Shown: piece after piece, positions 13,816 through 32,292 of the stretch
Position numbering within the stretch: position 1 is the first letter of the stretch
Layout: each line of letters starts with the position of its first letter
Virus record (IMG/VR): IMGVR_UViG_3300029489_000008
Coordinates: 1-39,099 of that record
Strand: one strand, 5' to 3'
Source of the DNA: a virus
Length of the DNA: 39,099 bases
Program-made: the position numbers and the translations under genes
Notes under the pieces: generated by a model
What the model was told of the DNA's origin: nothing
The model's database searches: none
The model's input: only the letters and a program-made list of their open reading frames with translations

Positions 13816-15755
13816 TGGCTGCCCCGAGTATCAACTCAAAAATCAAACTGGACGGCGAGCGGGAATACAAGGCTGCGCTGGCCGAGATCAAGAGCGGACT
13901 GAACGTTCTGAAATCCGAGCTAAATCTCGCGTCCGAGCAGTTTCGGGATAACGCGGACAGCGTCGAAGCGCTGACAAAGAAAAATGATATTCTCGACCGC
14001 ACGATCCTGACGCAGAAGGAAAAAATCGAGCAGATCGAAAAGGCGCTCCAGTCATCGGCCTCCGCCTACGGCGAAGCCGATGAGCGCACCAATCGCTGGA
14101 AAACGCAGCTCAACAACGCACAGGCCGAATTGGTCAAGATGGAGCGTGCATTGAAGGACAACGAGGGCGCTCTCCAAAAAGCACAGAGAGAGGCAGACGG
14201 CACGACGACCGCCTTTGGCAAGCTGAAAAAGGCACTGTCCGACACCAAGGAGCAGGGCGGCGGCCTCAAGGGTCTGTTCGCCAATCTCAAGGAGGAGTTC
14301 TCCGGCAACGACGAGGTCATGCGCGGCCTTGGCGACGCGCTGACGGATGTGGCCGGGAAGTTCGGCATCCAGCTTCCGGAGGGCGCACAGAAGGCCGTGG
14401 AATCTCTCAACGGCATCCATGCAGGTGCGGCTTTGGCTGTGACCGGCCTTGGCCTTGTGGTCGCTGCGGTGGTCAAGACCGAAAAGGCCCTAATTTCCAT
14501 GACGAAGGAATCTGCCGCCTATGTTGACAACATTCTTACGATGTCGCAGACGACGGGCCAGTCCGCAGAACAGCTGCAGGAGTTTTCCTACGCAACGGAG
14601 CTTATGGACGTGTCCATGGACACGCTGCAAGGCTCGCTGACCAAGCTGACCAACAATATGCAAAATGCCATCAACGGAACCGGGGATGCAAAATCCGCTT
14701 TTGAGCAACTAGGTATTTCTCTGACAAATGATGTCGATGGTAGTATGCGCAGCGCAAACGACGTCTTTTACGACACGATTGATGCGCTCGGCGAGGTGCA
14801 GAACGCGACGGAACGTGACGCGCTCTCCATGGACATCTTTGGGCGGTCTGCGCAGGATCTCAACCCGCTGATCATCCAGGGCAGCGAGACCCTGAAAGAT
14901 TATGCGAAGGAAGCGCATGACGTTGGCTATGTTCTCGACAACGAAGCGTTAGAAGCACTCGGCGCTGTCGACGACGGGTTCCAGCGGTTGCAAAAAACAC
15001 AGGAATCTGTCAAGAACCAGATGGCTGCGGAGTTTGCTCCGTATCTGACCAAGGCGCTGGAGGACATCCGAGAGCTGATCCAGAAGGTCGGTAAAGCGCT
15101 GGTCGAGTCCGGCGCGGTCGATGCCTTCGGCAGTATCCTCGAATCGTCCGTTGCCCTGCTGGAGCCGCTCGGTTCGCTGATCTCCGCTGTTCTTCCGGCT
15201 TTGACCGCAGCATTGAAACCGATCGCAGAAACGGTTGCCCTGATTGCAGACACAGCCAACGTTATTGTCGGCCTGTTTACGTTCAACGGCGATAAGATCA
15301 GAACTGCGCTCGGCCTGAACGCCAGCTCCGGACAGCTCAGCAATATGCAGCGTGCCAGCGGTGCCTATAACGGCTACCGCTATTCGCAGTCTGCGGGCTG
15401 GATCACCGAGGGCACCTACACGGACGCGGAGCTGCGGTCGATGTACAACAGTGAGGTTTCCGCTGGGACGGCGCAAGGGACCTTTGAGGCGTGGAAAAAT
15501 GCCGGGTCGTGGCGCAGGAACGCCAGCGGCACAGACTGGTTTCCCGGCGGGCGGACGCTGCTGAGCGAGCACGGCGCGGAGACCGCGATCTTGCCGCAGG
15601 GCACACGCATCCTGACCGCGCAGGAAACGCGCCAGTCCGGCGGCGATACTTACAACATCACGATCGACGCCCATACGGTGCGGGAGTTTGAGGACATTCT
15701 CCGCATTGTGCAGGAGCGCCGCAGAGTGGTTCGGATGGGAGGGACAGCAACGTGA
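13815..15755 (+). CDS. Tail tape measure protein
   Basis: Coiled-coil N-terminus, a TP901-type core (LTMSQTTGQSAEQLQEF...IFGRSAQDLNPLI), and the expected position. Confidence 0.9.
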   Translation: MAAPSINSKIKLDGEREYKAALAEIKSGLNVLKSELNLASEQFRDNADSVEALTKKNDILDRTILTQKEKIEQIEKALQSSASAYGEADERTNRWKTQLNNAQAELVKMERALKDNEGALQKAQREADGTTTAFGKLKKALSDTKEQGGGLKGLFANLKEEFSGNDEVMRGLGDALTDVAGKFGIQLPEGAQKAVESLNGIHAGAALAVTGLGLVVAAVVKTEKALISMTKESAAYVDNILTMSQTTGQSAEQLQEFSYATELMDVSMDTLQGSLTKLTNNMQNAINGTGDAKSAFEQLGISLTNDVDGSMRSANDVFYDTIDALGEVQNATERDALSMDIFGRSAQDLNPLIIQGSETLKDYAKEAHDVGYVLDNEALEALGAVDDGFQRLQKTQESVKNQMAAEFAPYLTKALEDIRELIQKVGKALVESGAVDAFGSILESSVALLEPLGSLISAVLPALTAALKPIAETVALIADTANVIVGLFTFNGDKIRTALGLNASSGQLSNMQRASGAYNGYRYSQSAGWITEGTYTDAELRSMYNSEVSAGTAQGTFEAWKNAGSWRRNASGTDWFPGGRTLLSEHGAETAILPQGTRILTAQETRQSGGDTYNITIDAHTVREFEDILRIVQERRRVVRMGGTAT

Positions 15756-18055: not shown

Positions 18056-19088
18056 CGTTTCCTATCACGTCAACGTTCTGCGCAACGGAGCCGAGTTTGC
18101 CCGGCTCCATTGGCGCAGCGGCGACAATCCCAATATCATGGTCAACAAGGACGCCGAGATCAAAGGCAGCTTCTCCGGGCGGTTCTACGTCCCCGACACG
18201 GTCGATCTGCTGTCAGACGAGCTGCAGCCCGTCATGCGGCTGAACGGCGTGGAGACGCCGCTGGGCGTCTTCCAGACGGCCACTCCGAGCCGCGCGACCG
18301 ACCGCTACAACACGGTCGTCCAGATCGAGGCATACGACCGCTGCTGGCGGCTGCAAAACCAGCGTACGGAGAACATCCTGCACATCGCCGCCGGTACGTC
18401 CTACATTACAAAGATCCGCCAGATGCTCACGGAGGCCGGGATCGGGCTGGTCATTGCGGCTCCGTCCATAGCCACGCTCCAGACAGACCGCGAGGATTGG
18501 GAGATCGGCACGACCTACCTCGCTATTATCAATCAGCTGCTGGCCGAGATCAATTACAGCGATGTGTGGTTCGACGGCAGCGGCATCGCGCATTTGGAGC
18601 CGTATGAACAGCCCAGCGCCGACCGCATCGATCATGCCTATTCCGATACCGATGTCGTCCACGCGCAGCCGATCGGGCCGGATCACAACGACGAGACGGA
18701 CATTTTCAACGCGCCGAACGTCTTTGTCCGAATCTGCAGCAATCCGGATCTCGATGCCGACATGGTGGCCACGGCGGTCAACGAGTCTCCGACGTCCAGC
18801 ACATCCACGTTCAAGCGCAAAATGCGCATCGTGGATGTGCAGCGTGTGGACAACATTGCGAGCCAAGATGAGCTTCAGGCCGCCGCAGACCGCGCCCGGA
18901 ACGAGTCCATGCTGGCCGCGCGAACCATCACATTTCAGACACTCAACGAGCCGGGGCACGGCGTCGGGGACATCATCTCCATCGACGACCCGGAACTGGC
19001 CGGGATCTACGAGGAGACCGGCTGGTCGCTGACCATGGCCTCCGGCCAGATGATGCAGCACACAGCAAAAAGGACGGTGATCGCATGA
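18045..19088 (+). CDS. Tail tip / baseplate protein (Tal position)
   Basis: TTG 18045 lies 8 nt after AAAGGAGGA and overlaps the upstream stop. The function is assigned from position only. Confidence 0.6.
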   Translation: MIRDVSYHVNVLRNGAEFARLHWRSGDNPNIMVNKDAEIKGSFSGRFYVPDTVDLLSDELQPVMRLNGVETPLGVFQTATPSRATDRYNTVVQIEAYDRCWRLQNQRTENILHIAAGTSYITKIRQMLTEAGIGLVIAAPSIATLQTDREDWEIGTTYLAIINQLLAEINYSDVWFDGSGIAHLEPYEQPSADRIDHAYSDTDVVHAQPIGPDHNDETDIFNAPNVFVRICSNPDLDADMVATAVNESPTSSTSTFKRKMRIVDVQRVDNIASQDELQAAADRARNESMLAARTITFQTLNEPGHGVGDIISIDDPELAGIYEETGWSLTMASGQMMQHTAKRTVIA

Positions 19089-19324
19089 TGGATCTGTTTA
19101 CGGCCACGCTGGAGAGTCCGCAGGAATCGCCGCTGCTCTCGCTGGCGACGATCGGCGCGAAGTACACGGACGGCGTCTCGCTGATCTTCCCCGGCCAGAC
19201 CAAGGCAACGGCCAAGCACTACCGCTGCAATCCGGACGTCACCTTCGCTGCGGGCAATCGCGTCCTGATTGCCCGCGTCAGCGGCAGCTATGTGGTGCTG
19301 TGCAAGGTCGGCAAGCCAAAGTAA
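19085..19324 (+). CDS. Small tail-module protein
   Basis: ATGA overlap with the upstream gene. No family recognised. Confidence 0.55.
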   Translation: MMDLFTATLESPQESPLLSLATIGAKYTDGVSLIFPGQTKATAKHYRCNPDVTFAAGNRVLIARVSGSYVVLCKVGKPK

Positions 19325-19334
19325 GGAGGTAGCT

Positions 19335-19652
19335 ATGAGCCTAAAAATCATGCAAGGCGACCAGTACGCCATTGTATTTACTGGGACGCAGAACGGCGCG
19401 CCGCTCGACCTATCCAAGATTGAGATGATCGAGTTCATCGTTGGGAAGCTGCGAAAAATCTACCCCGGTGAGGTCACGGCGAACGACGGGAAGTTTTACT
19501 TTCCGCTGACACAGGAAGAGACGCTGAACTTCAAATCGGCGATGCAGTCGGTGCAGATCCGGGTGAAGTTTCTCGGCGCGGAGCCTGTTGTGGTCGGCGT
19601 TCCTCTCGGGGGCATCCGCGTTACAGACGCGATCAGTAAGGTGGTGCTGTGA
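19335..19652 (+). CDS. Tail-module hypothetical protein
   Basis: ATG 19335 preceded by TAAGGAGG. Confidence 0.65.
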   Translation: MSLKIMQGDQYAIVFTGTQNGAPLDLSKIEMIEFIVGKLRKIYPGEVTANDGKFYFPLTQEETLNFKSAMQSVQIRVKFLGAEPVVVGVPLGGIRVTDAISKVVL

Positions 19653-19843
19653 TGGCGATTCCATTCAACATCAGCGAGAGGCCGGAGATCGCCTTTTCCA
19701 TTGAAAATGTCAAGGCTGGTCTTGGCGGCGGCTCCGGCAACGTCTCATCTGCGCAGATCAACACCATTGTAGTCCTCGACCGGGCAGAATATGACGCACT
19801 GGCCGTCAAGGATGCAAAGACACTGTATCTGATTCGGGGGTGA
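19649..19843 (+). CDS. Small fibre-associated protein
   Basis: VVLDRAEYDALAVKDAKTLYLI resembles the AEYDAL..KD..TLY motif found at the N-termini of phage fibre proteins. Confidence 0.55.
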   Translation: MMAIPFNISERPEIAFSIENVKAGLGGGSGNVSSAQINTIVVLDRAEYDALAVKDAKTLYLIRG

Positions 19844-19847
19844 CGGA

Positions 19848-19991
19848 ATGATCACAGTCGGAGAAGAACAGCTAAAGGAGTTGTTTGTCGGTGAGATGGG
19901 CATCAAGAATGCCTGCATCGGCGAAGAACCCATCTATACCCGCCAGGGCGGATATTTATACATCGAACTGAACGAAAAGAAAGGGGCATAA
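19848..19991 (+). CDS. Small ORF (47 aa), absent from the ORF track
   Basis: ATG 19848 to TAA 19991 exactly fills the gap between neighbouring genes: MITVGEEQLKELFVGEMGIKNACIGEEPIYTRQGGYLYIELNEKKGA. Confidence 0.4.
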   Translation: MITVGEEQLKELFVGEMGIKNACIGEEPIYTRQGGYLYIELNEKKGA

Positions 19992-19994
19992 CCT

Positions 19995-20657
19995 ATGGCA
20001 AGTTTTTTCAATCTAATTCTTGATACGCTTGCACCGTCTGGGCTGACGCTGAAGCTCAACGGCGGCGCGACGTATGCAACAAGCAACACCGTAGCCGCAA
20101 CGATCACGCTGACGGATGAAACCAAGACCGGCTACCAGATGAAGCTCTGGGGCATCAAGGCGGCTGCAACGGAAGCGGACGCATCGTGGGAGACCTTCGC
20201 GGCCAGCAAGTCCATCATCCTGACGGAAGGCGATGGACTGAAAACCGTACATATCAAGGTGCGGGATGACGTCGGCAACGAAACGGCTGCGGTCACAGCG
20301 TCTATCACGGTCAACACTGCGGTTCCGGTGGTCACGATCACTGGCCCCGACAAGACCAGAATCTCCAAAGTCTCCGGCTTCGACACCTGCGCGTTCTCCT
20401 TCACCTGCGACGTGGACTTCGAGGAATACACGGTGCGTGTCGTGCCGAGCACCAGCAGTCTCCACGACGCCGGTACGCAGATCCCGACCACTGGCGGTTC
20501 CAGCAACACCAGCGGCACGGCTGGCGGCTACAAGAAGGCCACGGCGATTGATGTCACCATCAAGGGCGCTGACCTTGCGACGGCATCCTCCGGCGACGGT
20601 ACGAAGATCATCAAGGTCTTTGTCAAGAACGCCGCCGGGACTTGGAGCGTGGCATAA
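19995..20657 (+). CDS. Tail fibre / decoration protein with Ig-like modules
   Basis: Thr/Val/Ala-rich beta-type sequence. The C-terminal half (TITGPDKTRISKVSGFD...) is paralogous to the next ORF. Confidence 0.7.
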   Translation: MASFFNLILDTLAPSGLTLKLNGGATYATSNTVAATITLTDETKTGYQMKLWGIKAAATEADASWETFAASKSIILTEGDGLKTVHIKVRDDVGNETAAVTASITVNTAVPVVTITGPDKTRISKVSGFDTCAFSFTCDVDFEEYTVRVVPSTSSLHDAGTQIPTTGGSSNTSGTAGGYKKATAIDVTIKGADLATASSGDGTKIIKVFVKNAAGTWSVA

Positions 20658-21034
20658 TGGCCGCGCCGGGACTGACGTTCACCATCACGGGGAATAAAAT
20701 CTCGGCAGTCTCGGGTTTCGATTCCATCACCGTCAAATTCTCATCGGACATCGCATATCAGGCATTCGAGTGCCGCGCGACGAAGACCGGCGAGGACTGG
20801 GGGCGAGGGAAAGGGGCGCTCATTGCGTCCTTTTCCCAGACCCCTGCGGGGACGGAGCGAACCTTTGAGGTCTACGACGATTTTCTCCTGAGTGGTGACG
20901 GAGAATATAGAATCTCCCTCTACGCACAGGGGGCGGACGGAAGCTGGAATGATAACTATGGTTTTGTGCCGTCTGGCACGACAAAGACCATGCTGACGGC
21001 AGACGGCAAGGAATTTCTCTGCATGAAGGAGTGA
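20657..21034 (+). CDS. Paralogous Ig-like tail-module protein
   Basis: TAATG overlap with the upstream gene. FTITGNKISAVSGFDSITVKF parallels the preceding ORF. Confidence 0.7.
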   Translation: MAAPGLTFTITGNKISAVSGFDSITVKFSSDIAYQAFECRATKTGEDWGRGKGALIASFSQTPAGTERTFEVYDDFLLSGDGEYRISLYAQGADGSWNDNYGFVPSGTTKTMLTADGKEFLCMKE

Positions 21035-21038
21035 TTTT

Positions 21039-21236
21039 ATGGCAGACCAATACAATAGCGCGCACACCGGCGCAGAGATCGATCAGGCGGTGTCTGACGT
21101 CCAGAACAACAAGGCCGCATGGAGCGCGAAGGAGCTGCCCGCGGTCACTGCTTCGGACAATGGAAAGTTCCTGCGTGTTGTGTCTGGTGCATGGGCGGCT
21201 GCGGAGATTGCAAACGCGAATGGAGGTAGCTTCTGA
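21039..21236 (+). CDS. Small fibre-associated protein
   Basis: GAAGGAG RBS upstream. Contains an HTGAEIDQAV motif. Confidence 0.6.
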   Translation: MADQYNSAHTGAEIDQAVSDVQNNKAAWSAKELPAVTASDNGKFLRVVSGAWAAAEIANANGGSF

Positions 21237-22348
21237 TGGCTGAATATTTGACAAATACAACTGACCTGACAAAGGTTGCCGCAGCTATCCGGGAGAAGGG
21301 CGGCACATCTGACCCACTGGTCTACCCGGACGGATTTGTGACAGCGATTCAGGCCATTCAGACCGGCACGGAATTGAAGATCGTCGTGTCTGTGACATCT
21401 GGTGCAACTGTTACCGCCACGAAAGGAAGCAAGGCCGTGAGCGGTACATCCGTCAACGGAACGTGTACACTTGTTGTTCCGGAGGCCGGTACATGGAGCG
21501 TCAAGGCGACGCACAATGGGCAAACGTCCGGTACGAAAAGCGTCACTTTTACGGATCGTTACGCGGTTACGCTCTCTTTTGTTTCGGCTGTGCTGAATGA
21601 TAACGACTGGGCGACCATCAAAAAAATATCCGACAAGGGTGAGGGCGCGAACTATTGGAGTATCGGCGACCGAAAGGCGGTCACGCTGAACGGCACAGTT
21701 GGCACGTTGACGCTGTCAAACTATACGATCTACGCATTCATTCTGGGGTTTAATCACAATGCCGAGCTTGAAGGCCAAAACCGCATTCACTTCCAGCTGG
21801 GCAAAACCGCACTGTCCGGTGGTACGGATGTTGCCCTCTGTGACTACGCCTATAATAACATGGGCGGCGGATTCAGAATGAACACCAGCAACACGAACAA
21901 TGGCGGGTGGGAAAGCTCGCAAATGCGTACTGCGATTTGCGGTACAAGCCTGACAAGCTATTCCGGCACGATTCTTGCTGTCATCCCGGCAGCACTCCGC
22001 GCCGTTCTGAAATCCGTCACGAAGTACACGAATAACATAGGTAATAGCTACGCCGAGACTGCGGTAACGGCAACGACAGATTACTTTTTCCTCCTGTCTG
22101 AATATGAAGTATTCGGGGCAAAAAAATACAGTAACGTGGATGAGAAAAACAAACAAGCTCAATACGCATATTACAGCGCGGGCAACAGCAAAATCAAGTA
22201 CAATCACGGTGCGACAAGCACAGCCGTCATTGTGTGGTTGCGCTCTTCCGCGTACCAAGCCTATTTCGTAAGTGTGAAGGTTGATGGGACGGTTGATACT
22301 CAATTCGCAGGCTACTCGGAAGGTTTTGCCCCAGGTTTTTGTGTATAG
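21236..22348 (+). CDS. Tail fibre / receptor-binding-like protein
   Basis: N-terminal LTKVAAAIREKGGTSDPLVYPDGFVTAIQAI pattern. The C-terminal region carries DYFFLLSEYEVFG and WLRS motifs. Confidence 0.7.
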   Translation: MAEYLTNTTDLTKVAAAIREKGGTSDPLVYPDGFVTAIQAIQTGTELKIVVSVTSGATVTATKGSKAVSGTSVNGTCTLVVPEAGTWSVKATHNGQTSGTKSVTFTDRYAVTLSFVSAVLNDNDWATIKKISDKGEGANYWSIGDRKAVTLNGTVGTLTLSNYTIYAFILGFNHNAELEGQNRIHFQLGKTALSGGTDVALCDYAYNNMGGGFRMNTSNTNNGGWESSQMRTAICGTSLTSYSGTILAVIPAALRAVLKSVTKYTNNIGNSYAETAVTATTDYFFLLSEYEVFGAKKYSNVDEKNKQAQYAYYSAGNSKIKYNHGATSTAVIVWLRSSAYQAYFVSVKVDGTVDTQFAGYSEGFAPGFCV

Positions 22349-22357
22349 GGAGGCATT

Positions 22358-22726
22358 ATGGACTACATCACATACAAACGGTTCAAAGGAAAAAGCATTT
22401 CCGGGGAGATCAATATTCCGTTCGGCACGATTTTGCAGGAGCGTGAAAAATTCCTCTATCTGGACGGAAAGCCGATCTGCTGCGTGACGAGTGAAAACGG
22501 CTGGAATCATTTTCGACCACTGACTGATGAGGGCAAATACCGGCAGGATATGTTGGAAAAGCTCTACAGCTGGTATACAAAGCACGGATGCGGTGAGGAT
22601 TTCACCGATGAGAACTGGCCGGGACAGGAGAACGGCTATTGGAAGAACCGGTTGAGAACAGCCAGCACGGAACGGTTGAAACAGATCTATTTTGAGAAAT
22701 TCGGGGTGATGCCATGTATGCAGTAA
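22358..22726 (+). CDS. Hypothetical protein
   Basis: GGGAGG RBS upstream; otherwise coding context only. Confidence 0.6.
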   Translation: MDYITYKRFKGKSISGEINIPFGTILQEREKFLYLDGKPICCVTSENGWNHFRPLTDEGKYRQDMLEKLYSWYTKHGCGEDFTDENWPGQENGYWKNRLRTASTERLKQIYFEKFGVMPCMQ

Positions 22727-23025
22727 AAAAAGAGGGTGCGTTTGCCGGGTATGCGGACAGCATTATGCTCATCCGGCTGCATAGCAACGGCTGCTATGTA
22801 CCGTGCAAGGAGGCCGAGGCCGAGGGCTTTTGTGCGAAGATGGCCGTGACGCTGACCGACGAGGACGGTAAGGAGTATCAGGCACTTTCTGACACGGTGT
22901 TCCGGCTGGCGGGCAAGCTGTTGAAGGGCACAGAGCCGGAGGGCAGCTATGAGGAAATGGGTGCGGCATTGCCACTCACGGATGCAGAGACAGCGGCGAA
23001 AATTTTACTTGGGGAGGCAGAATGA
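22714..23025 (+). CDS. Hypothetical protein
   Basis: Overlapping operon arrangement with its neighbours. Confidence 0.6.
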   Translation: MYAVKKEGAFAGYADSIMLIRLHSNGCYVPCKEAEAEGFCAKMAVTLTDEDGKEYQALSDTVFRLAGKLLKGTEPEGSYEEMGAALPLTDAETAAKILLGEAE

Positions 23026-23426
23026 TGATGACCTATACAGAAAGGGCCAGAGCACTACGGCCCTATATTGAAAAAGCATCTGTGAGCCTAGCTGATGAAG
23101 ATGCGCTGCAAGCAGTAGAGCTGTTTCCCCAGTGGGTGATAGGCCATTCTTATGCGGTCGATGAGCGGTTGCAATATAAGAATGTGCTGTATCGCGTGGT
23201 GCAGGCGCATACCTCCCAGGCAGATTGGCCGCCGGATAAGACACCGGCGCTGTTTGTGACCGTTTCACTGGACGAATGGCCTGAATTCGTACAGCCGACC
23301 GGGGCGCACGACGCCTACAAGAAGGGCGACAAGGTGACGTTTGAGGGCAAGCATTATATTAGCCTGATTGACGCGAACGTGTATTCACCCACAGCATATC
23401 CGGCTGGTTGGCAGGAACAGACATAA
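23022..23426 (+). CDS. Carbohydrate-binding (CBM5/12-like) protein
   Basis: Two repeats of the Y-x-x-GD-V-x-Y-x-G-x-x-Y type: YAVDERLQYKNVLYRVVQAH and YKKGDKVTFEGKHYISLIDAN. Confidence 0.6.
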   Translation: MMMTYTERARALRPYIEKASVSLADEDALQAVELFPQWVIGHSYAVDERLQYKNVLYRVVQAHTSQADWPPDKTPALFVTVSLDEWPEFVQPTGAHDAYKKGDKVTFEGKHYISLIDANVYSPTAYPAGWQEQT

Positions 23427-23450
23427 AAATACCGGGAAAGGAAGTAAGAG

Positions 23451-23747
23451 ATGGACGATGGAATTCAGGCAAAGATCGCCGAAATCGAGGCCCGCAGCAA
23501 GAGCAACACGCACCGCATCAACGACTTAGAGGAGGACAACCGGGCGCTGCACGCGCTGGCGACGTCGGTCGAAGTCCTCGCCACGAAGCAGGATACCATT
23601 GAGAGCACCGTGCAGGAGATCAAGACGGACGTCAAGGAATTAAAGGCCGTGCCGGGAAGCAAATGGGAGGCGCTGGTCAAGGCGGCCCTCACGGCCATTG
23701 TGGGGGCGCTGGTCGGCTTCGCGCTGGCTCATGCGGGGATCGTGTGA
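23451..23747 (+). CDS. xhlA: XhlA-family protein (coiled coil plus C-terminal TM), lysis-associated
   Basis: N-terminal coiled coil and C-terminal TM AALTAIVGALVGFALAHAGIV. It heads the lysis cassette. Confidence 0.7.
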   Translation: MDDGIQAKIAEIEARSKSNTHRINDLEEDNRALHALATSVEVLATKQDTIESTVQEIKTDVKELKAVPGSKWEALVKAALTAIVGALVGFALAHAGIV

Positions 23748-24004
23748 TGGAGACTTCGAAGAAGCTGCTGATTGGCAGCGCGGCGGCGAGCGTCGTTTGC
23801 ATTATCCTGAATGTGCTCGGCGTGCTGAGCGTGGAGGTCACGCTGGCAGTCATCGGATTTGCGACGGCGATTGGGATGTTTTACCTCTGGAAAGCCAAGA
23901 ACGAGAACCGCAGCAAATACGCAATAAAGTACATCAAGAGTTTACCGGAAACGTATACGGCAGAGGAAAAGGCACGGTTTTTGGAGATCGTGCTAAAGGA
24001 TTGA
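23747..24004 (+). CDS. Small 2-TM protein, holin candidate
   Basis: TGATG overlap with the upstream gene. Two hydrophobic helices are followed by a charged tail. Confidence 0.6.
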   Translation: METSKKLLIGSAAASVVCIILNVLGVLSVEVTLAVIGFATAIGMFYLWKAKNENRSKYAIKYIKSLPETYTAEEKARFLEIVLKD

Positions 24005-24016
24005 AAGGAGTTACTT

Positions 24017-24316
24017 ATGAAAAAACTGTTTATCTCTCAGCCTATGAAGGGCAAGACCAACGAGGAAATTCGGAAAGAGCGTGAAGAAGCGATCATCTGC
24101 GCAAAGGAACTGACGGGCAATGAAATCGAAGTGATTGATAGCTTCTTTGAAAACGCTCCGGCTGATGCAAGGCCACTGTGGTATCTTGGCGAATCACTGA
24201 AACTGCTGTCTACGGCTGACGTTGCGTACTTTGCCCCCGGTTGGAAGAACGCCCGCGGTTGCAAGATTGAGCATATCTGCGCGGAGCAGTACGGTATCAA
24301 CATCGTGGAAGCGTAA
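24017..24316 (+). CDS. DUF4406-like (nucleoside deoxyribosyltransferase-fold) protein
   Basis: MKKLFISQPMKGKT...PLWYLGESLKLLSTADVAYFAPGWKNARGCKIEH matches the family pattern. The RBS context is AAAGGAGTTACTTATG. Confidence 0.65.
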   Translation: MKKLFISQPMKGKTNEEIRKEREEAIICAKELTGNEIEVIDSFFENAPADARPLWYLGESLKLLSTADVAYFAPGWKNARGCKIEHICAEQYGINIVEA

Positions 24317-24328
24317 AAGGAGTTACGT

Positions 24329-24514
24329 ATGAGAGAACTGAACGCCTGCCCGTTATGTGGGTATTTCCCAGTGCTGAAACAAGTCGGAGACGATAAAAAT
24401 CTCTTGGTGTACCAATGCGCACATTGTGGCTACATTGCCGCGAAAAACCATGAGGCAAAATACACAAAATCCGGCGCCATGAAAGTTTGGAACAAAGGGA
24501 CGGAAAAAGCATAA
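24329..24514 (+). CDS. Lar-family restriction-alleviation-like zinc-ribbon protein
   Basis: LNACPLCG...YQCAHCGY...AMKVWNKG fits the CPxCG...CxxCG...A..WN pattern. The RBS context is AAAGGAGTTACGTATG. Confidence 0.6.
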   Translation: MRELNACPLCGYFPVLKQVGDDKNLLVYQCAHCGYIAAKNHEAKYTKSGAMKVWNKGTEKA

Positions 24515-24531
24515 TGAAGGGAGTACATAAC

Positions 24532-24756
24532 ATGGACAAAATTATGAAACGGCTTTCGAATCTGCTGAGCGCGAAGTCGCTGGTGACGCTGCTGCTGACG
24601 GTGGTGTTTACGGTGCTGGCGCTGCGGGGTGATATCACAGGGAAAGACTTCTTGACGATCTTCCTGATGGTAATCACGTTCTATTTCGGCACGCAGTCGC
24701 AGAAGGCACAGGACGCGATGGATGCGAAGGGTGACGACAATGGCACTGAAAATTAA
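24532..24756 (+). CDS. Holin (2 TM)
   Basis: GAAGGGAG RBS upstream and two TM helices. Its end overlaps the endolysin start. Confidence 0.7.
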   Translation: MDKIMKRLSNLLSAKSLVTLLLTVVFTVLALRGDITGKDFLTIFLMVITFYFGTQSQKAQDAMDAKGDDNGTEN

Positions 24757-25420
24757 CGATACCATCCGGGCAACGAGAGTGGGCGGCAGACGTCCGCTCT
24801 CGGCCATCCGGGCCATCGTGTTCCACTACACTGCAAACACTGGCCTGCACGCGACGGCGCTCGGCAATGCCCGGTATTTTGCAAACGGCTCCGAGGGACG
24901 CACTGCTTCGGCACATTTCGTGGTAGACGAGGGCGATACCGTTTATCAGTGTGTGCCGCTGGACGTGGTCGCATGGGCCGTGGGCGACGGCAGGAGCGGC
25001 AAATTCGGCAAGGTGTACGGCAACTACAACACCGTCAGTATCGAGATGGTGAGCCATACGGACGCTTCCGGCAAGTACTACATCCCGGAGGCGACGATGC
25101 GCAACGCTGCGCGTCTGTATCAAATGCTGCTGAAGCAGCTTCCGAACGTGCAGGCCGCGATCCGGCACTATGACATTTCGATGAAACTGTGTCCGCTGCC
25201 GCTGATTGACGAAACGAAGTGGGCGGACTTTAAGAAGCTCTTGGAGGAGGTGGACGAAGTGGTCACGAAAGCAAAGATGATCGTCGACGGCAAGGAGATC
25301 GAGGTCGAACGCATTTTGAAGGACGGCACGAATTACATTAAAATTCGCGACATCGCAAAGGCGCTGGATCTTGAAGTGTCGAACAAGGGCAATGTCCCGA
25401 TCCTGAATCATAAGCAGTAA
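24740..25420 (+). CDS. Endolysin: N-acetylmuramoyl-L-alanine amidase (Amidase_2/PGRP) with a C-terminal Cu-amine-oxidase-N-like wall-binding domain
   Basis: IVFHYTAN...ASAHFVVD...AWAVGD...SIEMVSH...IRHYDISMKLCP, then VDGKEIEVERILKDGTNYIKIRDIAKALDLEV. Confidence 0.85.
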   Translation: MALKINDTIRATRVGGRRPLSAIRAIVFHYTANTGLHATALGNARYFANGSEGRTASAHFVVDEGDTVYQCVPLDVVAWAVGDGRSGKFGKVYGNYNTVSIEMVSHTDASGKYYIPEATMRNAARLYQMLLKQLPNVQAAIRHYDISMKLCPLPLIDETKWADFKKLLEEVDEVVTKAKMIVDGKEIEVERILKDGTNYIKIRDIAKALDLEVSNKGNVPILNHKQ

Positions 25421-25445: not shown

Positions 25446-25712
25446 TTGGAGGTGGTGACGATCAGCGCGAGGGTGCGGATTCCGGAAGACTTGACCGGCC
25501 TGCTGCAAGGCGAGTGGGAGCAGATCATAGCACAGGCAGGTTACAGTGAGCAGGATGCGGAGATCGTCCGGCGTTATATCATGAATAAGACACCGCAGAT
25601 TGACATAGCGGTGGAGCTGGACATGGCGCGGAGCACGATCACCCGCAGACTGCCGCAGATCTACGCACGAGCGCGGCACACGGCAGCAAAGCTGCAAATG
25701 ATAAACGAGTAA
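25446..25712 (+). CDS. Sigma-70 region-4-like HTH regulator
   Basis: EQDAEIVRRYIMNKTPQIDIAVELDMARSTITRRL. The start is uncertain (TTG 25446 or GTG 25452). Confidence 0.6.
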   Translation: MEVVTISARVRIPEDLTGLLQGEWEQIIAQAGYSEQDAEIVRRYIMNKTPQIDIAVELDMARSTITRRLPQIYARARHTAAKLQMINE

Positions 25713-25736: not shown

Positions 25737-25775
25737 CAAAAGCCCCCGGCAGGAGTGATCCTGTCGGGGGCTTTT
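25737..25775. terminator. Bidirectional intrinsic terminator between convergent genes
   Basis: aaaa-gcccccggcagg-agtgat-cctgtcgggggc-tttt forms a 12-bp stem with A and T tracts on the two sides. Confidence 0.8.
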
Positions 25776-25776
25776 C

Positions 25777-26589
25777 CTATTTTACGAGCAGAAAAACGAG
25801 AAGTGCCGCAATAAACACGACGATTGTAGGTAACCAAACAAAGAATCCTTTGACTGGTTTCTTTCTGGAAAGGTCATTCAAAATTGTGGTGCGAAGCAAT
25901 GTCAGGAGGAAACTGATTCCACCAACGGTTATGAGGTTATAGCCGATGAAACTTCGCAAAGTGGATTCATCTTCAAGAAGCTTTACGTTGGTAGAAATCA
26001 AGCTGAAGATTGCAACAAAGACAGCAAGAATCGCCAGAACGTTTGCATAAATAGATTTTTCGATTTCTTTTACATCGCCTGCCTTTTTATCAAGCTGATT
26101 GATTTGTTTTTCATAAGCCTTTTTGTATCCGCTTAGACCTGTGTAACCGCCGATTTCATCCTTAAACTTCCCACTGTAAGGTTTGTCTGCTGAGCCAGAT
26201 AGTTTTTCAAAAACGATCATGGCATAGCTGTCTTCTACATTTAGGCGGATCTCATTCTCGGAAATATTAGTAAGCCGGAAAAACACCCGTGTCTTATGCC
26301 CTGGTTGATAAATTGGAGCAGAGACAGACAATCCTTGACGGATGCGACTATTACGGTCATGCACGATAGCCGCCATATCGACGGGCATATTGATAATTTC
26401 TTCTGTTGAAACCATTACGGATTCACCAGGAGCGAGGGGCTTTGACGTGTGTTCCCCATCGTCATCATAAAAAGCCTTTGTGCGAAGATCGTACCCGATG
26501 TTTGTAATGCAGTCAGGAGAGAACGTGTCTTCTTGAATGATTCCTGAATCAGCAATCAGTTTTGAAAGATCGTGGTCAACCAAAATCAT
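25777..26589 (-). CDS. dCTP-deaminase/dUTPase-fold domain (probably non-catalytic) fused to a coiled-coil linker and three C-terminal TM helices
   Basis: GGAGGT RBS 6 nt upstream. LAPGESVMVSTEEIINMP, DRNSRIRQGL, QPGH, VFFRLTN and FEKLSG..KPYSGKF line up with Dcd motifs. TM helices are IYANVLAILAVFVAIFSLI, FIGYNLITVGGISFLLTLL and FFVWLPTIVVFIAALLVFLLV. Confidence 0.85.
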   Translation of the reverse strand: MILVDHDLSKLIADSGIIQEDTFSPDCITNIGYDLRTKAFYDDDGEHTSKPLAPGESVMVSTEEIINMPVDMAAIVHDRNSRIRQGLSVSAPIYQPGHKTRVFFRLTNISENEIRLNVEDSYAMIVFEKLSGSADKPYSGKFKDEIGGYTGLSGYKKAYEKQINQLDKKAGDVKEIEKSIYANVLAILAVFVAIFSLISTNVKLLEDESTLRSFIGYNLITVGGISFLLTLLRTTILNDLSRKKPVKGFFVWLPTIVVFIAALLVFLLVK

Positions 26590-26618
26590 ATCCTTACCTC
26601 CGTTCTTTCTTTGCCTAA

Positions 26619-26646
26619 ATTATAGCGCGACTGCGAGAATTTGCAA
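26619..26646 (-). promoter_or_regulatory. Near-consensus sigma-70 promoter for the Dcd-like-TM gene (TTGCAA-N16-TATAAT on the minus strand)
   Basis: The plus strand reads attata at 26619..26624 and ttgcaa at 26641..26646. The inverted repeat aatttgc(26638..26644)/gcaaatt(26656..26662) overlaps the -35. Confidence 0.6.
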
Positions 26647-26692: not shown

Positions 26693-26767
26693 ATGCGCCG
26701 ATGCGTCAGAAATGCTACACAAATGCGTCACTCATGCGTCCCAAGGAATCCGGAAAACTGTCATACT
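26693..26767 (+). promoter_or_regulatory. Phased ATGCG(T/C)C repeats followed by a TGtCATACT extended -10; putative regulated promoter of the cargo operon
   Basis: atgcgcc at 26693; atgcgtc at 26701, 26723 and 26734 (spacings 22 and 11 nt); catact at 26762..26767. The -35 position is a poor match. Confidence 0.4.
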
Positions 26768-26789
26768 GGAATCAGAAAGCGGAGGTGAT

Positions 26790-27125
26790 ATGATGTATGA
26801 TTTCGGCCAGATGAGCGCGCAGCGCATGAGCATCACTCAGGTAAATGGCTGGGGCGGCGCGGATGCGTTCCGCATGGGGCCGAACAGCTCGATCCTGCTG
26901 CTCGATCAGGAACAGCCAGTGGTCTACATGAAAACAACGGACGGCGGCGGATTCCCCAGCGTGGCGGCGTATGAGCTTCGCCCGCTGCAACGGCCTAAAC
27001 CGCTGGATGCGAACGAGCTTGAAGAACGATTGAACAGATTGGAGGCGTTGATCCGTGAATCCGTTACTAAACAAGATGCTGACCCAAAGTCCAAGCGGAA
27101 GCCAGAGCCCGCAAATGCCGAGTAA
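26790..27125 (+). CDS. Cargo operon gene A, hypothetical (111 aa)
   Basis: GGAGGTG RBS, then ATG 26790. MMYDFGQMS...ITQVNGWGGADAFRMGPNSS...KTTDGGGFP, with a charged C-terminus. Confidence 0.7.
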   Translation: MMYDFGQMSAQRMSITQVNGWGGADAFRMGPNSSILLLDQEQPVVYMKTTDGGGFPSVAAYELRPLQRPKPLDANELEERLNRLEALIRESVTKQDADPKSKRKPEPANAE

Positions 27126-27288
27126 CCCGCTTGCAATGCTGCAAGAGTTCAACAAATTCCGCCGCTCCATCACGCCGGAGGGCGCGAAGCAACGGGTGCA
27201 GGAGCTTTTGCAGAGCGGACGGATGAGCCAGCAGCAATTCGAGCAGCTCCAGCAGCAGGCACAGGCGTTTGCTCAATTTCTGAAATAA
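27055..27288 (+). CDS. Cargo operon gene B, small Gln-rich protein
   Basis: GTG 27055 lies 9 nt after GGAGG and overlaps gene A by 71 nt. Internal ATGs at 27076, 27115 and 27136 are alternative starts. Confidence 0.5.
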   Translation: MNPLLNKMLTQSPSGSQSPQMPSNPLAMLQEFNKFRRSITPEGAKQRVQELLQSGRMSQQQFEQLQQQAQAFAQFLK

Positions 27289-27332
27289 GCCGGGTGCGCA
27301 ACGGTTTATGATAAAAAATTACGAAGGGAGAT

Positions 27333-27941
27333 ATGACAATGATGGAAAACATGAGTCCTGCCGACATCAAGGCCGTTACTGGCTCTGATGGTGACGGCTG
27401 GGGTGGCGGCGCGTGGTGGATCATCATCCTGTTCCTGTTCGTCTTCATGGGCGGCGGCTGGGGCATGAACCGCCAGAGCGACTTCGGCCAGTACGCCACG
27501 GCAGCCAGCCAGCAAGAGATCCTGTTCGGGCAGCAGTTCGGGCAGATCAACGACCGGCTCACGAACATCGGCAACGGCATTTGTAACCTCGGCTATGATG
27601 TACAGGGCAACATCGGCCAGCTCGGCAAGGAGGTCGCCCTTGCGCAGAACGGCACCAACATGACCGTGATGCAGACCGGCAATGACATCCAGCGTCAGCT
27701 TGCGGAGTGCTGCTGCACAACGCAGCGAGCCATCGACGGCGTGAACGCGAACATTGACGCCAAGTTCGCAGCCCTCGAAAAAGGCCGTCTGGAAGAGCGC
27801 ATCTCGCAGCTGGAGCAGGCAAACAACCAGCTCTATATCAAGGAACAGCTCAACGGCGTTGTGCGGTATCCGACCGGCTACTCCTACAACGCGGGGCCGT
27901 CTCCGTTCTGCAACGGCAACAGCGGCTGCGGCTGCATGTGA
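27333..27941 (+). CDS. Cargo operon gene C: Gly/Trp-flanked TM anchor, coiled coil and Cys clusters
   Basis: GWGGGAWWIIILFLFVFMGGGWG, AECCCTTQ, and C-terminal FCNGNSGCGCM. ATGs at 27333, 27339 and 27342 are all possible starts after AAGGGAG. Confidence 0.75.
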   Translation: MTMMENMSPADIKAVTGSDGDGWGGGAWWIIILFLFVFMGGGWGMNRQSDFGQYATAASQQEILFGQQFGQINDRLTNIGNGICNLGYDVQGNIGQLGKEVALAQNGTNMTVMQTGNDIQRQLAECCCTTQRAIDGVNANIDAKFAALEKGRLEERISQLEQANNQLYIKEQLNGVVRYPTGYSYNAGPSPFCNGNSGCGCM

Positions 27942-28011
27942 TTCCGGCTTGACCGTGAGAAATCGGAGGGCGGGAAACCGCCCTCTTGGACTATGAAAAG
28001 GAGAAATGATT

Positions 28012-28398
28012 ATGGCTTGTAAACCGATCTGCAAACTCTGCCCGCATCTTGTGATTTCCACCGCTGTGACATACGCGAGCGGTGTACTGACGGTCAACCT
28101 CCCGGCGGGAAGCTATAACAACGGCGAGAAATACTGCATCGTGATCGCACAGAATATCCCGACAACGGCCATCATCGGGGCGCCGGTCGTCGTGACTATC
28201 GGCACTGGAACCGTGCAATATCCGCTGACGCGCTGCAACTGCAAGCAGCTGACGGCCTGCGGCCTGCGGACACGGACACGGTATTCCGCTGTGGTGGAGA
28301 CCACGCCAACAGACGGTGTGTTCCGCCTGCTGGGGAAGCCGTGCTGCACGCCGAACAACGATCTGGACAGCATCAACGGCACGTCGCCGACGGCGTAG
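28012..28398 (+). CDS. Cargo operon gene D: Cys-rich beta-type protein (9 Cys in 128 aa)
   Basis: AAGGAG lies 8 nt upstream of ATG 28012. MACKPICKLCPHLVIS...RCNCKQLTACG...GKPCCTPNN. Confidence 0.75.
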   Translation: MACKPICKLCPHLVISTAVTYASGVLTVNLPAGSYNNGEKYCIVIAQNIPTTAIIGAPVVVTIGTGTVQYPLTRCNCKQLTACGLRTRTRYSAVVETTPTDGVFRLLGKPCCTPNNDLDSINGTSPTA

Positions 28399-28408
28399 GA
28401 GGCGGACA

Positions 28409-28873
28409 ATGGGACTGCAAAGCTATCGGCAGAAGCTCCATGACGCGCTCCACGAGATGGAGCACTGCCCGGTAAACATGAACACAGTGGCACAGGCAAC
28501 GGCGCTTGCTGAGCTGTGCTGCAAGCTGCGAGAGATCGACGGACACGAAACTTCCAAGGAATTCTCGGCAACTGACGCCAAGCGCTGGACTGCAAAGATG
28601 GAAAATGAGGACGGCACGACCGGCGCGCACTGGACAATGGAGCAGACGGACGCCGTGGCCAATATCACAGGCGTCAATGTGAAGCCTTACACCTGGTGGG
28701 CGGCAATGAACATGATGTACTCGGACTATTACGGCGTAGCTGCCAAGTACGGCCTAGACCGGCCGGAATTCTATGCCGACCTCGCCAAAGCGTTCCTCAT
28801 GGATAAGGACGCCGGAGGAGCGGAGGAGAAGATAGCCGGGTATTATCATGGGATTGTGCTGAGAGAAAAATGA
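28409..28873 (+). CDS. Cargo operon gene E, hypothetical (154 aa)
   Basis: GGAGGCGG RBS, then ATG 28409. ...MENEDGTTGAHWTMEQT...AMNMMYSDYYGVAAKYG...FYADLAKAFLMDKDA. Confidence 0.75.
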   Translation: MGLQSYRQKLHDALHEMEHCPVNMNTVAQATALAELCCKLREIDGHETSKEFSATDAKRWTAKMENEDGTTGAHWTMEQTDAVANITGVNVKPYTWWAAMNMMYSDYYGVAAKYGLDRPEFYADLAKAFLMDKDAGGAEEKIAGYYHGIVLREK

Positions 28874-30911: not shown

Positions 30912-31790
30912 TCACAACTGTATTGTCCACTCACCAACAGCTTTAACTACCAAAAGTGTTGGTGCCCCAGAAATCGAGACGGTTCCGTTGTAAACCTCGG
31001 TTGTATTAACCAGCAAATCGCCACCAACGCCATACGTCCACACCGCGAAGTGATGCTCGCCAGCATTGCCGGAGATATGTGCTGTTGTCCCATGACTTTT
31101 GATCAAGAGAACAGCGTCTCCATAACCGGAATAGTTGGTGTCTGCACTGATGCTGCCTGTATCGTAAATAGATCGCAGTTCGATTTTCCATGCTCCGCTG
31201 GCTTTTACCTCTATCGACGCTACATCGTAGCTCGGGTCTATTGTAAACCCGCTATACGATTCTGTGGTGTTGACCAGCAACTCTCCATATTCCCCCGCTG
31301 AATTGTATGTAGTCACTGAAAAGTGTTTCGCATCACTATTCCCTGTAATGTAAAATGCAAACGGATAATCAGGGGTAACGATGGATAGTACATCGTCTCC
31401 ATAACCTTCAAGGATTCGCGGCTTTGGTATATCTACTGGAATCTGCATATCATTTTGCACGGTCTGTGGCTGCTGCTGATATTCGCCCTGTATGGTCGGC
31501 GTAGTCATCGCTGTATCTGGCTCATTCGTTTTTGCGTTTAACCGTATTGTCCCAATTATACTGCCACCGATTGGAACTGCGGCAAGCACTGCCACAACCA
31601 AAAACAACGGTATTTGATACAGTTTTCGAGCCGACACGGCTTTGCAGTATTTGGCAGTCCGCACAACGCCAATCAGCGGAAGGACGATACCGAGCAGATA
31701 CACATGACACACAAGCATGAAAAGGCCCAAAATGATTAGTATTACATACAGATACACGTTTTTCCCATTGCTATTATCTTTTGCGCTCAT
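30912..31790 (-). CDS. Membrane protein: two N-terminal TM helices, a Gln-rich linker and two tandem beta-rich repeats of about 85 aa
   Basis: GGAGGAG RBS upstream. The repeats are GYGDDVLSIV...LLVNTTESYSG...VKASGAWKIEL and GYGDAVLLIK...LLVNTTEVYNG...VKAVGEWTIQL. Confidence 0.8.
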   Translation of the reverse strand: MSAKDNSNGKNVYLYVILIILGLFMLVCHVYLLGIVLPLIGVVRTAKYCKAVSARKLYQIPLFLVVAVLAAVPIGGSIIGTIRLNAKTNEPDTAMTTPTIQGEYQQQPQTVQNDMQIPVDIPKPRILEGYGDDVLSIVTPDYPFAFYITGNSDAKHFSVTTYNSAGEYGELLVNTTESYSGFTIDPSYDVASIEVKASGAWKIELRSIYDTGSISADTNYSGYGDAVLLIKSHGTTAHISGNAGEHHFAVWTYGVGGDLLVNTTEVYNGTVSISGAPTLLVVKAVGEWTIQL

Positions 31791-31960
31791 CCGTTTCTCC
31801 TCCAGTTGAAAACTATTGTGTGCAAAGTCTCAAACCTTGCGCTATAATAAATCCATCTCCGAGCAAAACAAATTACGAAAGGATGGCTGCACCATGGAAG
31901 AAGTCAGAGCCGAATTGAAAGAGATGATCTTGCAAATGGCCCCTGAACAGTTTGAATGGT

Positions 31961-32275
31961 TTACAGCGCAAGTGCAGCTTTTGCTATTTCGAAAAGACGA
32001 CTGACTTGTTCGTCAGGTAGGTTGTCGATCAAAGAATACATATTGTTCTTTGCCTCGCTGAGTTCTTTCAGCGAGGTGATTTTTTTTGAATCAGATAAGC
32101 CGAGCAAATAGTCAGCGGAGCATCCAAAGAATAGTGCAATTTTGCAAATTGTTTGGTCGTCCAGCCGTCGTGTCCCGGTTTCCCATTGTGACACAGTATT
32201 CTGCGCCGCACCGATTGCGTTGGCAAATTCCTTTTGCGACAACCCTGCCTCGGCGCGTAATTCTTTCAGTCTCAT
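31961..32275 (-). CDS. CI-like XRE-family repressor
   Basis: MRLKELRAEAGLSQKEFANAIGAAQNTVSQWETG. The track ORF extends to GTG 32284, so the start is uncertain. Confidence 0.8.
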   Translation of the reverse strand: MRLKELRAEAGLSQKEFANAIGAAQNTVSQWETGTRRLDDQTICKIALFFGCSADYLLGLSDSKKITSLKELSEAKNNMYSLIDNLPDEQVSRLFEIAKAALAL

Positions 32276-32292
32276 CGGCATCACCTGTTTGT

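Follow-up and report, generated by a model that had tools for sequence, protein, structure and literature searches.

A candidate single-gene exclusion or defence protein of temperate gut phages, with a non-catalytic Dcd/dUTPase-fold head and three membrane helices

What would a temperate phage gain from a gene that resembles one for a nucleotide-converting enzyme, runs against the direction of its neighbours and ends in membrane helices? The question is raised by a virus genome of 39,099 nucleotides (IMG/VR virus record IMGVR_UViG_3300029489_000008, positions 1 to 39,099; this whole stretch is called the window below), in which a minus-strand open reading frame (ORF) at 25777..26589, identified in the ORF list and by direct reading, starts with ATG and encodes 270 amino acids (aa) followed by a stop codon. 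A preliminary description of the window had taken the product to be a probably inactive member of the dCTP deaminase (Dcd)/dUTPase fold fused to a membrane module, and had suggested that it acts in superinfection exclusion or abortive infection (Abi). The translation given there matches the computed one, and the ORF is, as was claimed, the sole minus-strand gene between the endolysin gene (24722-25420) and a plus-strand block (26712-28873). We refer to it as the DCD-TM gene, TM standing for transmembrane. The analysis described here indicates that its product consists of a Dcd-fold head devoid of the catalytic residues, a helical linker and three TM helices, and we favour the explanation that it is a sensor-type exclusion or abortive-infection protein. 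The parts of the gene and the signals around it are as follows.

26619..26646, minus strand: sigma-70-type promoter, with −35 TTGCAA (26646-26641), a 16-nt spacer and −10 TATAAT (26624-26619); consensus scan, 10 of 12 positions
26596..26601, minus strand: ribosome-binding site GGAGGT, six bases before the ATG; direct reading
25777..26589, minus strand: coding sequence for a non-catalytic Dcd-fold head, a linker and three TM helices; ORF list and 396 full-length homologs
26140..26589, minus strand: Dcd/dUTPase-fold head, residues 1-150; family scans, profile alignment, Foldseek and conservation
26059..26139, minus strand: linker, residues 151-177, a turn at G151/Y155 and then a charged helix with a hydrophobic seam into TM1; AlphaFold2 model and conservation
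25780..26058, minus strand: TM module, residues 178-270; hydropathy and charge analysis
25738..25775, no strand assigned: terminator, a GC-rich hairpin with an A-run on one side and a T-run on the other; terminator scan and RNA folding

A Dcd/dUTPase-fold head without its catalytic residues

Family profiles and structure comparison agree in assigning the first 150 or so residues to the Dcd/dUTPase fold, as had been proposed by eye. The protein matched Pfam DCD (PF22769) with E=1.3e-12 and 48.5 bits, which passes the gathering score of 27; this family, which is present in all full-length homologs, denotes a fold and not an enzyme class. The score against TIGR02274 (dCTP_deam) was 65.2 bits, below the NCBIfam equivalog cut-off of 92.8, and the NCBIfam dUTPase equivalogs scored far lower than TIGR02274. 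The phage family phrog_1663, named 'dCTP deaminase', matched residues 1-148 with E=9e-19. An AlphaFold2 monomer model, for which a 37-sequence family alignment was the input, had a mean pLDDT of 81.7, with about 90 for the head. In a Foldseek comparison with the PDB, the best matches were the Dcd-family dUTPases of Thermococcus (9ln0/8y1w; TM-target 0.78-0.80), followed by the Dcd or Dcd:dUTPase structures of M. tuberculosis, B. halodurans, E. coli and M. jannaschii, the TM-target values for Dcd-family structures ranging from 0.61 to 0.80.

The catalytic positions were mapped by a HMMER family-profile alignment to the M. tuberculosis Dcd:dUTPase (2qxx/4a6a), with the numbering anchored by the A115V entry; the equivalence to E. 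coli E138 was taken from the PDB entries named E138A and E138D, with which the alignment offset agrees. Residue N80 of the phage protein occupies the position of Ser102 of M. tuberculosis Dcd (E. coli S111), the catalytic Ser of the R-S-S motif. Q95 occupies that of Asp119 (E. coli D128), the Asp of motif III, and it faces the Asp of 'VDPGW' in 8y1w and of 'IDPGF' in 2qxx. R105 occupies that of Glu129 (E. coli E138), the catalytic Glu. The Thermococcus dUTPase, which is the closest solved relative, has Met in the Glu column and retains the Asp of 'VDPGW'. Since Ser, Glu and Asp are all replaced, the phage protein, as aligned, has lost the residues for deamination (Glu to Arg105, Ser to Asn80) as well as the residue for dUTP hydrolysis (Asp to Gln95). 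The preliminary description had called the Glu to Arg and Asp to Gln changes correctly, and had overlooked the third, Ser to Asn80. What the head keeps is the base-contacting Arg, with R84 at the position of Arg106 of M. tuberculosis Dcd (E. coli R115), a remnant of the phosphate motif (K/R79-N80-S81) and the C-terminal 'PY-G-F' lid. The motifs that can be followed along the head are thus the KNS-type phosphate motif R79-N80-S81, R84, Y94-Q95-P96-G97-H98, R105/N108 and the lid-like P137-Y138-x-G140.

These replacements are not peculiar to one sequence. A search of a 5.8-billion-protein index returned 396 homologs, nearly all of 256-274 aa, covering at least 99% of the query and unnamed. In 37 homologs down to 42% identity, N80, R82, R84, G86, Q95, P96, G97, H98, T100, R105 and N108 are invariant. 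The head alone also served as the query of an exhaustive phmmer search of 1.84 billion 50%-identity representatives, in which 961 proteins passed E<=1e-3 and 184 of them E<=1e-10. Of the 961, the best 150 almost all have N80, R84, H98, R105 and N108; at position 95 they show Q, F, Y, H, R, L or I, never Asp. Ser, Asp and Glu are replaced family-wide, and the base-contacting Arg (R84) is kept. We considered that the gene might be a decaying pseudogene; this was ruled out, because the 'wrong' residues stay invariant down to about 30% identity. Judging from these comparisons, non-catalytic Dcd-fold domains of this 'R105-type' form a clade of their own that is under purifying selection, and the head is a member of it.

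One public source names a 270-aa member of the P0274 cluster, the 90% cluster of the query, 'deoxycytidine triphosphate deaminase'. With the catalytic Ser, Asp and Glu all missing, this label is very likely a mis-annotation that is propagating. Applied by at least one pipeline and almost certainly wrong, it would distort metabolic reconstructions of phages and metagenome-assembled genomes.

Membrane module and exchangeable tails

The lid of the head is followed by a linker and by three hydrophobic segments, and the three hydrophobic helices that had been read from the sequence are now borne out by hydropathy, charge and the AlphaFold2 model alike. In the linker, a hydrophobic seam with 3.5-residue spacing passes through Y159, I163, L166, A170, V173, E177, I180 and V184 and onward into TM1 (seam residues, in order, YILAVEIVIFI), and Y155, Y159, Q162, K169 and E177 are conserved. 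Such a seam has the look that would be expected of a stalk joining a three-fold head to a helical bundle. The Kyte-Doolittle profile places the TM segments at about 178-201, 214-236 and 250-268. TM1 is the most conserved (N183, N201) and is followed by an acidic or neutral outer loop; TM2 carries N218 and G223, and a basic inner loop at 237-249 separates it from TM3. The helices of the model span 153-206 (one continuous helix), 211-240 and 249-268. Averaged over the family, the net charge of the loop at 237-249 is +2.2, and the one at 202-213 ranges from neutral to acidic; this distribution fits an N-in, C-out topology with a cytoplasmic head.

Column entropies were computed for 62 full-length members with a median identity of 35% to the query. 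They amount to 1.69 bits for TM1, 1.74 for the head core, 2.4-2.7 for TM2 and TM3 and 3.0-3.3 for the loops, and E177, Y181 and F191 are conserved in at least 85% of the members. The C-terminal part, in which TM1 equals the head core in conservation and the loops are variable, fits a functional membrane module and not a passive anchor.

The head is also found with other tails. About half of the nearest representatives carry the three-TM tail, many are proteins of about 145-200 aa with no TM segment, and a few have tails of another kind. Protein P0159 is apparently head-only; its contig is just 960 bp long, and the downstream frame shows no TM continuation. P0132 (309 aa) has a soluble domain in place of the TM module, which matched a PADLOC TIR-effector model at E=2e-5 and, weakly, Rcl/DNPH1 N-hydrolases at E of about 0.1-0.3; the weak evidence from single representatives hints at a TIR/NDT-like domain. 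In P0269 the head and TM segments are followed by an extra C-terminal domain, P0259 has a weak PG_binding-like domain after three TM helices, and P0201 has a HicB-like domain. One conserved head with interchangeable effector-like tails would, by analogy, correspond to the pattern of sensor-effector immune proteins. The P0132 gene lies in a same-strand cluster with SLATT and DUF4062 proteins on a relaxase-bearing element. The cluster (L104:711-6930, also L105 and L106), which includes in addition an uncharacterised protein of 1,205 aa, has the appearance of a multi-gene conflict system not described so far, with this head as one of its components.

A search with the tail (residues 149-270) against the 5.8-billion-protein index gave five matches, of which four were partial sequences from within the family and the fifth was a weak match to an unrelated protein; since it failed to recover even the known full-length relatives, the search is uninformative on the modularity of the tail. 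By tblastn, the fusion is absent from 50,697 cultured phage records, which yielded only ordinary soluble Dcd/dUTPase genes with at most 67% query coverage, and a fold search of BFVD returned soluble viral Dcd and dUTPase models only.

A mobile cassette and its genomic settings

The window is a temperate siphovirus-type genome. It begins with terminase, portal, major head protein, tape measure and tail genes, continues with a holin-like ORF, an Amidase_2 endolysin, an 88-aa ORF, the DCD-TM gene on the opposite strand and small plus-strand genes, the last of which encodes a DUF7841 protein, and ends with a tyrosine integrase, a helix-turn-helix (HTH) repressor, a replication initiator and a DnaB-like helicase. 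The DCD-TM gene thus has the endolysin on one side and the integrase/repressor module on the other. The exact 270-aa protein is present on at least 69 contigs, always in the same slot of mosaic phages of about 39-41 kb that differ in their tail genes and in their recombinase (tyrosine or serine).

Both the promoter and the ribosome-binding site that had been described, TTGCAA-16-TATAAT and GGAGGT, were found. A promoter-like match taken alone is not above chance (4 found versus 2.4 expected). In five of six homologs with 75-93% protein identity, however, the −35 TTGCA[AT], the −10 TATAAT and the whole leader are kept, the DNA upstream of −35 being unrelated; the leader 'GGCAAAGAAAGAACGGAGG' is nearly invariant. 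Because it is conserved with the gene across unrelated flanks, the promoter stands above chance, and this conservation reinforces the proposed autonomy of expression. At the other end, the hairpin at 25738..25775 has a dG of −29.1 kcal/mol (z = −5.75). With its A-run and T-run it is plausibly usable from both strands, in line with the bidirectional terminator suggested earlier, and it could plausibly terminate both converging transcripts, that of the DCD-TM gene and that of the 88-aa ORF. Similarity on the 3′ side ends at the stop codon in all homologs except the one with 93% identity, with which the hairpin is also held in common; the hairpin is, therefore, part of the local phage backbone and not of the cassette. 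Together, the retained leader and promoter, the unrelated upstream DNA and the end of similarity at the stop codon define a mobile unit made up of promoter, leader and coding sequence. The 88-aa ORF (25446-25712, plus strand), which converges on the DCD-TM gene and shares its terminator, has an 86-aa counterpart at the same place in six of six sister phages examined. It matched no Pfam or PHROG family, and its PADLOC matches to CARF models were marginal (E of about 0.005).

The AT-richness that had been noted by eye was confirmed by computation. GC content is 0.418 in the gene versus 0.566 in the rest of the window, and GC at third codon positions (GC3) is 0.417 versus 0.70-0.82 in the endolysin, integrase, major head protein and neighbouring ORF; the gene has the second lowest GC content of 766 sliding windows of 813 bp. 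The best explanation of these sequence features is that a self-contained accessory cassette, reaching from promoter to stop codon, was acquired by a temperate gut siphovirus from a donor of lower GC content. The features of the moron, exclusion and Abi class, namely an accessory position in a temperate phage, its own expression signals, atypical composition and a patchy distribution, are all present.

To which genomes do the relatives belong? A genome scan with one genome per species yielded 80 loci, in Oscillospiraceae, Lachnospiraceae, Collinsella (the majority), other Coriobacteriia and Bifidobacterium; many members are carried by temperate phages of Oscillospiraceae and Lachnospiraceae from the human gut, and others lie in islands of Collinsella and Bifidobacterium. 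The Firmicutes relatives lie in prophages, 14-1200 bp from tyrosine or serine recombinases or adjoining Ltp or PD-Lambda-1/SNIPE genes, as the following examples illustrate.

P0035: between an HTH-regulator region and a tyrosine integrase
P0022: between an integrase, 182 bp away, and a cI-type repressor
P0091 and P0106: a divergent serine recombinase 72-90 bp away
P0008: adjoins a Lipoprotein_Ltp protein; the superinfection-exclusion lipoprotein of TP-J34 belongs to this family
P0015: directly after a SNIPE/T5orf172 protein with a PADLOC PD-Lambda-1 match (E=2.5e-154)
P0001: beside a 3,439-aa ART-PolyVal protein

Proximity to a recombinase was considered as a universal rule and rejected: it holds for the Firmicutes prophage members and fails at about 55 Collinsella loci, which have no recombinase within 10 kb and belong to a chromosomal variable island. 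There, the gene lies just downstream of a conserved gene for an LPxTG-type surface protein that marks the island boundary, among small genes that vary by species. The island contains AbiLi and AbiLii (AAA_21 and RloB), AbiD/Abi_2 and Fic/Doc, and furthermore an MNT-type nucleotidyltransferase, DUF3990, DUF3825 and a YobI-like NTPase. The homologs surveyed in Firmicutes and Collinsella, which lie in prophage slots and in an island with defence genes, are not housekeeping genes. In one subgroup of about 20 Collinsella loci (L066:8751-9341 and about 19 others; cluster c4, with c3) a gene pair lies immediately upstream; one of its proteins (196 aa) has two TM segments near the N terminus, its C-terminal region matching nothing in Pfam or PADLOC, and the other (174 aa) has a weak Bles03-like match.

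A distant homolog with 25% identity and the same head-linker-TM layout is carried by the conjugative megaplasmid pRlX2 of Rhizobium beringeri (L113:1292-8091), which extends the architecture to Proteobacteria in a branch with a different pocket, the Asp being retained and Val standing in the R105 column. It comes right after genes for an AAA-ATPase and a UvrD helicase, a pair that by annotation alone has the Gabija arrangement, and before two hypothetical genes. Clustering of the neighbours at 78 loci revealed no partner gene shared across clades, including any signal-producing cyclase, TIR or Cas10 gene of the kind that accompanies the signal-gated TM effectors of CBASS, Pycsar, type III CRISPR or Thoeris, a result that fits a single-gene system.

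Function of the protein: preferred reading, rivals and known systems

In every part that could be put to computation, the interpretation offered in the preliminary description held, and two of the findings that it had named as fatal to the claim, intact catalytic residues and homologs of a housekeeping kind, did not turn up. On the basis of genomic association and fold, we propose with moderate confidence that the protein is a prophage-expressed single-gene exclusion or abortive-infection protein in which a non-catalytic sensor head controls a membrane effector. The cassette would probably be transcribed from its own promoter in the lysogen, against the flow of late-gene transcription. The cytoplasmic head, which by its fold should trimerise like its relatives and bind a nucleotide-like ligand without turnover, would serve as the sensor, the ligand being most plausibly a deoxynucleotide or an infection-specific nucleotide. 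The lid leads directly into the heptad helix that continues as TM1 in the model, so that ordering of the lid on binding might be passed on through a three-helix stalk to a TM1 bundle, which would perturb the membrane and cause abortive infection or exclusion. The beneficiary would be the lysogen or island-bearing cell, protected from other phages. A more specific proposal is speculative, and we consider it unlikely: the head would itself sense either the deoxynucleotide state of the cell or a modified or non-canonical dNTP produced by a phage, and closure of the lid on the ligand would open a trimeric pore lined by TM1.

Several observations weigh against the sensor-effector explanation. The Gln at the Asp position (Phe, Tyr or His in sister clades) and the Arg in the base pocket could abolish nucleotide binding instead of retuning it. 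TM2, TM3 and the loops are only moderately conserved. Among the nearest representatives, the half or so without the TM tail are probably in part fragments at contig ends, and others look like genuine head-only proteins, in which case the head may have a function independent of the membrane. The association with defence genes is equally true of toxin-antitoxin, anti-defence and other accessory cargo. Finally, the version of PADLOC used here, v2, dates from 2023, and a newer catalogue could already list the family.

The main rival explanation, which we regard as possible but having a small chance, is that the protein blocks DNA entry with no gating by a ligand, the three-TM module disturbing the injection machinery of the incoming phage and the trimeric head providing no more than an oligomerisation scaffold or a docking site for a phage protein. 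The gene does occupy the slot of classical prophage exclusion genes, and some relatives adjoin the Ltp exclusion lipoprotein or the membrane-associated PD-Lambda-1/SNIPE; moreover, the fold can bind proteins, as the dUTPase-Stl complexes in the PDB demonstrate (7pwx and 8p8o, both in the Foldseek list). A pure scaffold, however, would have no need for fixed residues that concentrate in the nucleotide-pocket motifs (N80/S81, R84, Y94-H98, R105, N108, Y138), and a head that also occurs with a soluble tail of TIR/NDT-like type is more in keeping with a sensor than with a plug in the membrane.

The remaining rivals rank lower. Could the protein be an enzyme tied to the membrane whose Asn/Gln/Arg/His pocket catalyses a different reaction on a nucleotide, such as the hydrolysis of a modified dNTP, with the TM helices just localising it? 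The strong purifying selection on the pocket, the retained phosphate-binding and lid motifs, the fact that His98 and Arg105 could in principle join in catalysis and the dCTP deaminase label from one public source all speak for such a view. Nevertheless, the three residues that define Dcd and dUTPase catalysis are all replaced, the scores fall below the curated cut-offs for both, variation of position 95 between subclades (Q, F, Y, H, R, L, I) is unusual for a catalytic residue, and a simple anchor would not need a TM1 as conserved as the head core; we consider this explanation improbable. Just as improbable, in our opinion, is a regulator internal to the phage, either an antiholin-like protein acting on lysis or a sensor of the nucleotide pool that feeds into induction. 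The protein is a small multi-TM one, and its gene adjoins the holin/endolysin cassette, with a terminator in common, both in the window and in close relatives, whereas its opposite strand and own promoter, the position of other clades by integrases far from lysis genes, the Collinsella and Rhizobium plasmid members with no surrounding phage and the foreign GC content and cassette-like mobility oppose a core phage function. The least probable is lysogenic-conversion or toxin-like cargo unrelated to phages, such as a stress- or nucleotide-responsive channel or an addiction toxin, to which the toxin-antitoxin genes of the Collinsella island (Fic/Doc, MNT-type nucleotidyltransferase, DUF3990) and the one sister protein fused to a HicB-like antitoxin domain would point, against the facts that no adjacent antitoxin-like partner is conserved across clades and that the recurring neighbours include the validated anti-phage genes PD-Lambda-1, AbiL and AbiD.

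How does the proposed sensor-effector protein compare with known systems? None of the families in PADLOC-DB v2.0.0 was matched at E<=10, and the full-text literature searched contained no account that connects a fusion of TM helices to a Dcd/dUTPase-like domain with defence or exclusion, consistent with the earlier statement that this is not a named defence system. The protein shares with the Dcd-family enzymes (dCTP deaminase, Dcd:dUTPase and archaeal Dcd-type dUTPase; 1xs1, 2qxx, 1ogh, 8y1w/9ln0) the fold over residues 1-150, the Arg115-equivalent R84, the 'PG' turn of the I-D-P-G motif and the C-terminal 'PY-G' lid. It differs from them by Asn, Gln and Arg in place of Ser, Asp and Glu and by scores below the NCBIfam equivalog cut-offs, and from the solved members also by its coiled-coil linker and three TM helices. 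Reuse of a fold of this type in virus-carried genes for signalling or binding has precedents. Staphylococcal phage dUTPases derepress the SaPI repressor Stl, and herpesvirus dUTPase-related proteins act by binding. Unlike the DCD-TM protein, these are soluble, are not known to carry a membrane module and belong to the classical Dut branch and not to Dcd, and the staphylococcal phage dUTPases, unlike the DCD-TM head, remain active enzymes.

In its general layout, a cytoplasmic ligand-binding domain followed by a helix and a small TM module, the protein resembles the TM effectors of CBASS, Pycsar and type III CRISPR, CARF-TM and SLATT proteins, whose TM module is thought to disrupt membranes and which are likewise associated with defence islands. 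The CBASS, Pycsar and CRISPR effectors need a partner enzyme that makes the signal, whereas DCD-TM has no conserved partner, a different sensor fold and no PADLOC match. It is comparable as well to the prophage exclusion and abortive-infection membrane proteins (PMC10883804, PMC10127798), of which P22 SieA, lambda RexB, TP-J34 Ltp and S. aureus PdpSau share the accessory slot by lysogeny or lysis modules, autonomous expression (judged for DCD-TM from its sequence signals), a membrane location and the organisation as a single gene or small operon; these proteins have no sequence or fold kinship with DCD-TM and no cytoplasmic domain derived from a nucleotide enzyme. The preliminary description had set the protein apart from the known defensive dCTP deaminases as soluble and catalytic. 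That characterisation is correct but has no bearing on DCD-TM: the defensive dCTP deaminase is a 576-aa protein with a kinase and a zinc-dependent cytosine-deaminase domain that acts by nucleotide depletion (bioRxiv 10.1101/2021.04.26.441389), is of an unrelated fold and resembles DCD-TM in no more than its anti-phage setting and what its substrate family is called. It is not a relative, and neither the zinc-dependent cytosine-deaminase domain nor the N-terminal kinase domain was detected in the phage protein by Pfam and PADLOC scans.

We regard the family as an un-named, fairly widespread candidate for a single-gene defence family on a new sensor fold. It would be a variant of the 'sensor plus membrane effector' and 'prophage exclusion gene' kinds and not a categorically new system, and many candidate defence genes of similar evidential grade already exist. 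If the sensor-effector explanation is right, a catalytically dead Dcd/dUTPase barrel that has become fixed would be a new sensor fold among bacterial immune receptors, and the 270-aa protein would offer a compact one-gene model of how a nucleotide-enzyme scaffold is turned into a membrane-effector switch. The R105-type pseudo-Dcd head would then represent a general, so far unrecognised immune sensor module that is reused with TM, TIR/NDT-like and other effectors. If nucleotides are sensed directly, the protein would be a one-protein immune switch that reads nucleotide metabolism with no signalling enzyme. As the family is common in the gut, with the exact protein on so many contigs, it may shape phage-phage and phage-host dynamics there.

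A few further observations concern the window phage and its sisters. By the repressor there is a second low-GC patch on the minus strand, at 30912-32284, which holds a 292-aa ORF (30912-31790; GC 0.46, GC3 0.46), with no match in Pfam, PHROG or PADLOC, and a 107-aa HTH protein (31961-32284). Sister phages have unrelated genes at the corresponding place, for proteins of 104, 275, 339 or 314 aa, and the 314-aa one carries an FtsK_gamma domain; this part of the window looks like a second variable accessory slot. The 761-aa ORF at 5476-7761 on the plus strand matched a small-terminase PHROG over residues 57-156 and large-terminase PHROGs over 169-751, and is either a fused small and large terminase or an ORF call that spans two genes. 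Some sister phages (L091:2502-12098, L107:13938-14813) have a giant ART-PolyVal/MuF_C polyvalent protein of about 2,700-3,400 aa a few genes off the cassette, where the window phage has ordinary tail genes. A megablast search with the right two-thirds of the window found a single near-identical public phage record, MT835551.1. This unannotated 'Bacteriophage sp.' of 33.7 kb was obtained from human faeces, and the match points to the human gut as the origin of the window; the sequence in common, about 15% of the queried region at 89% identity, falls in the structural genes (15700-25400).

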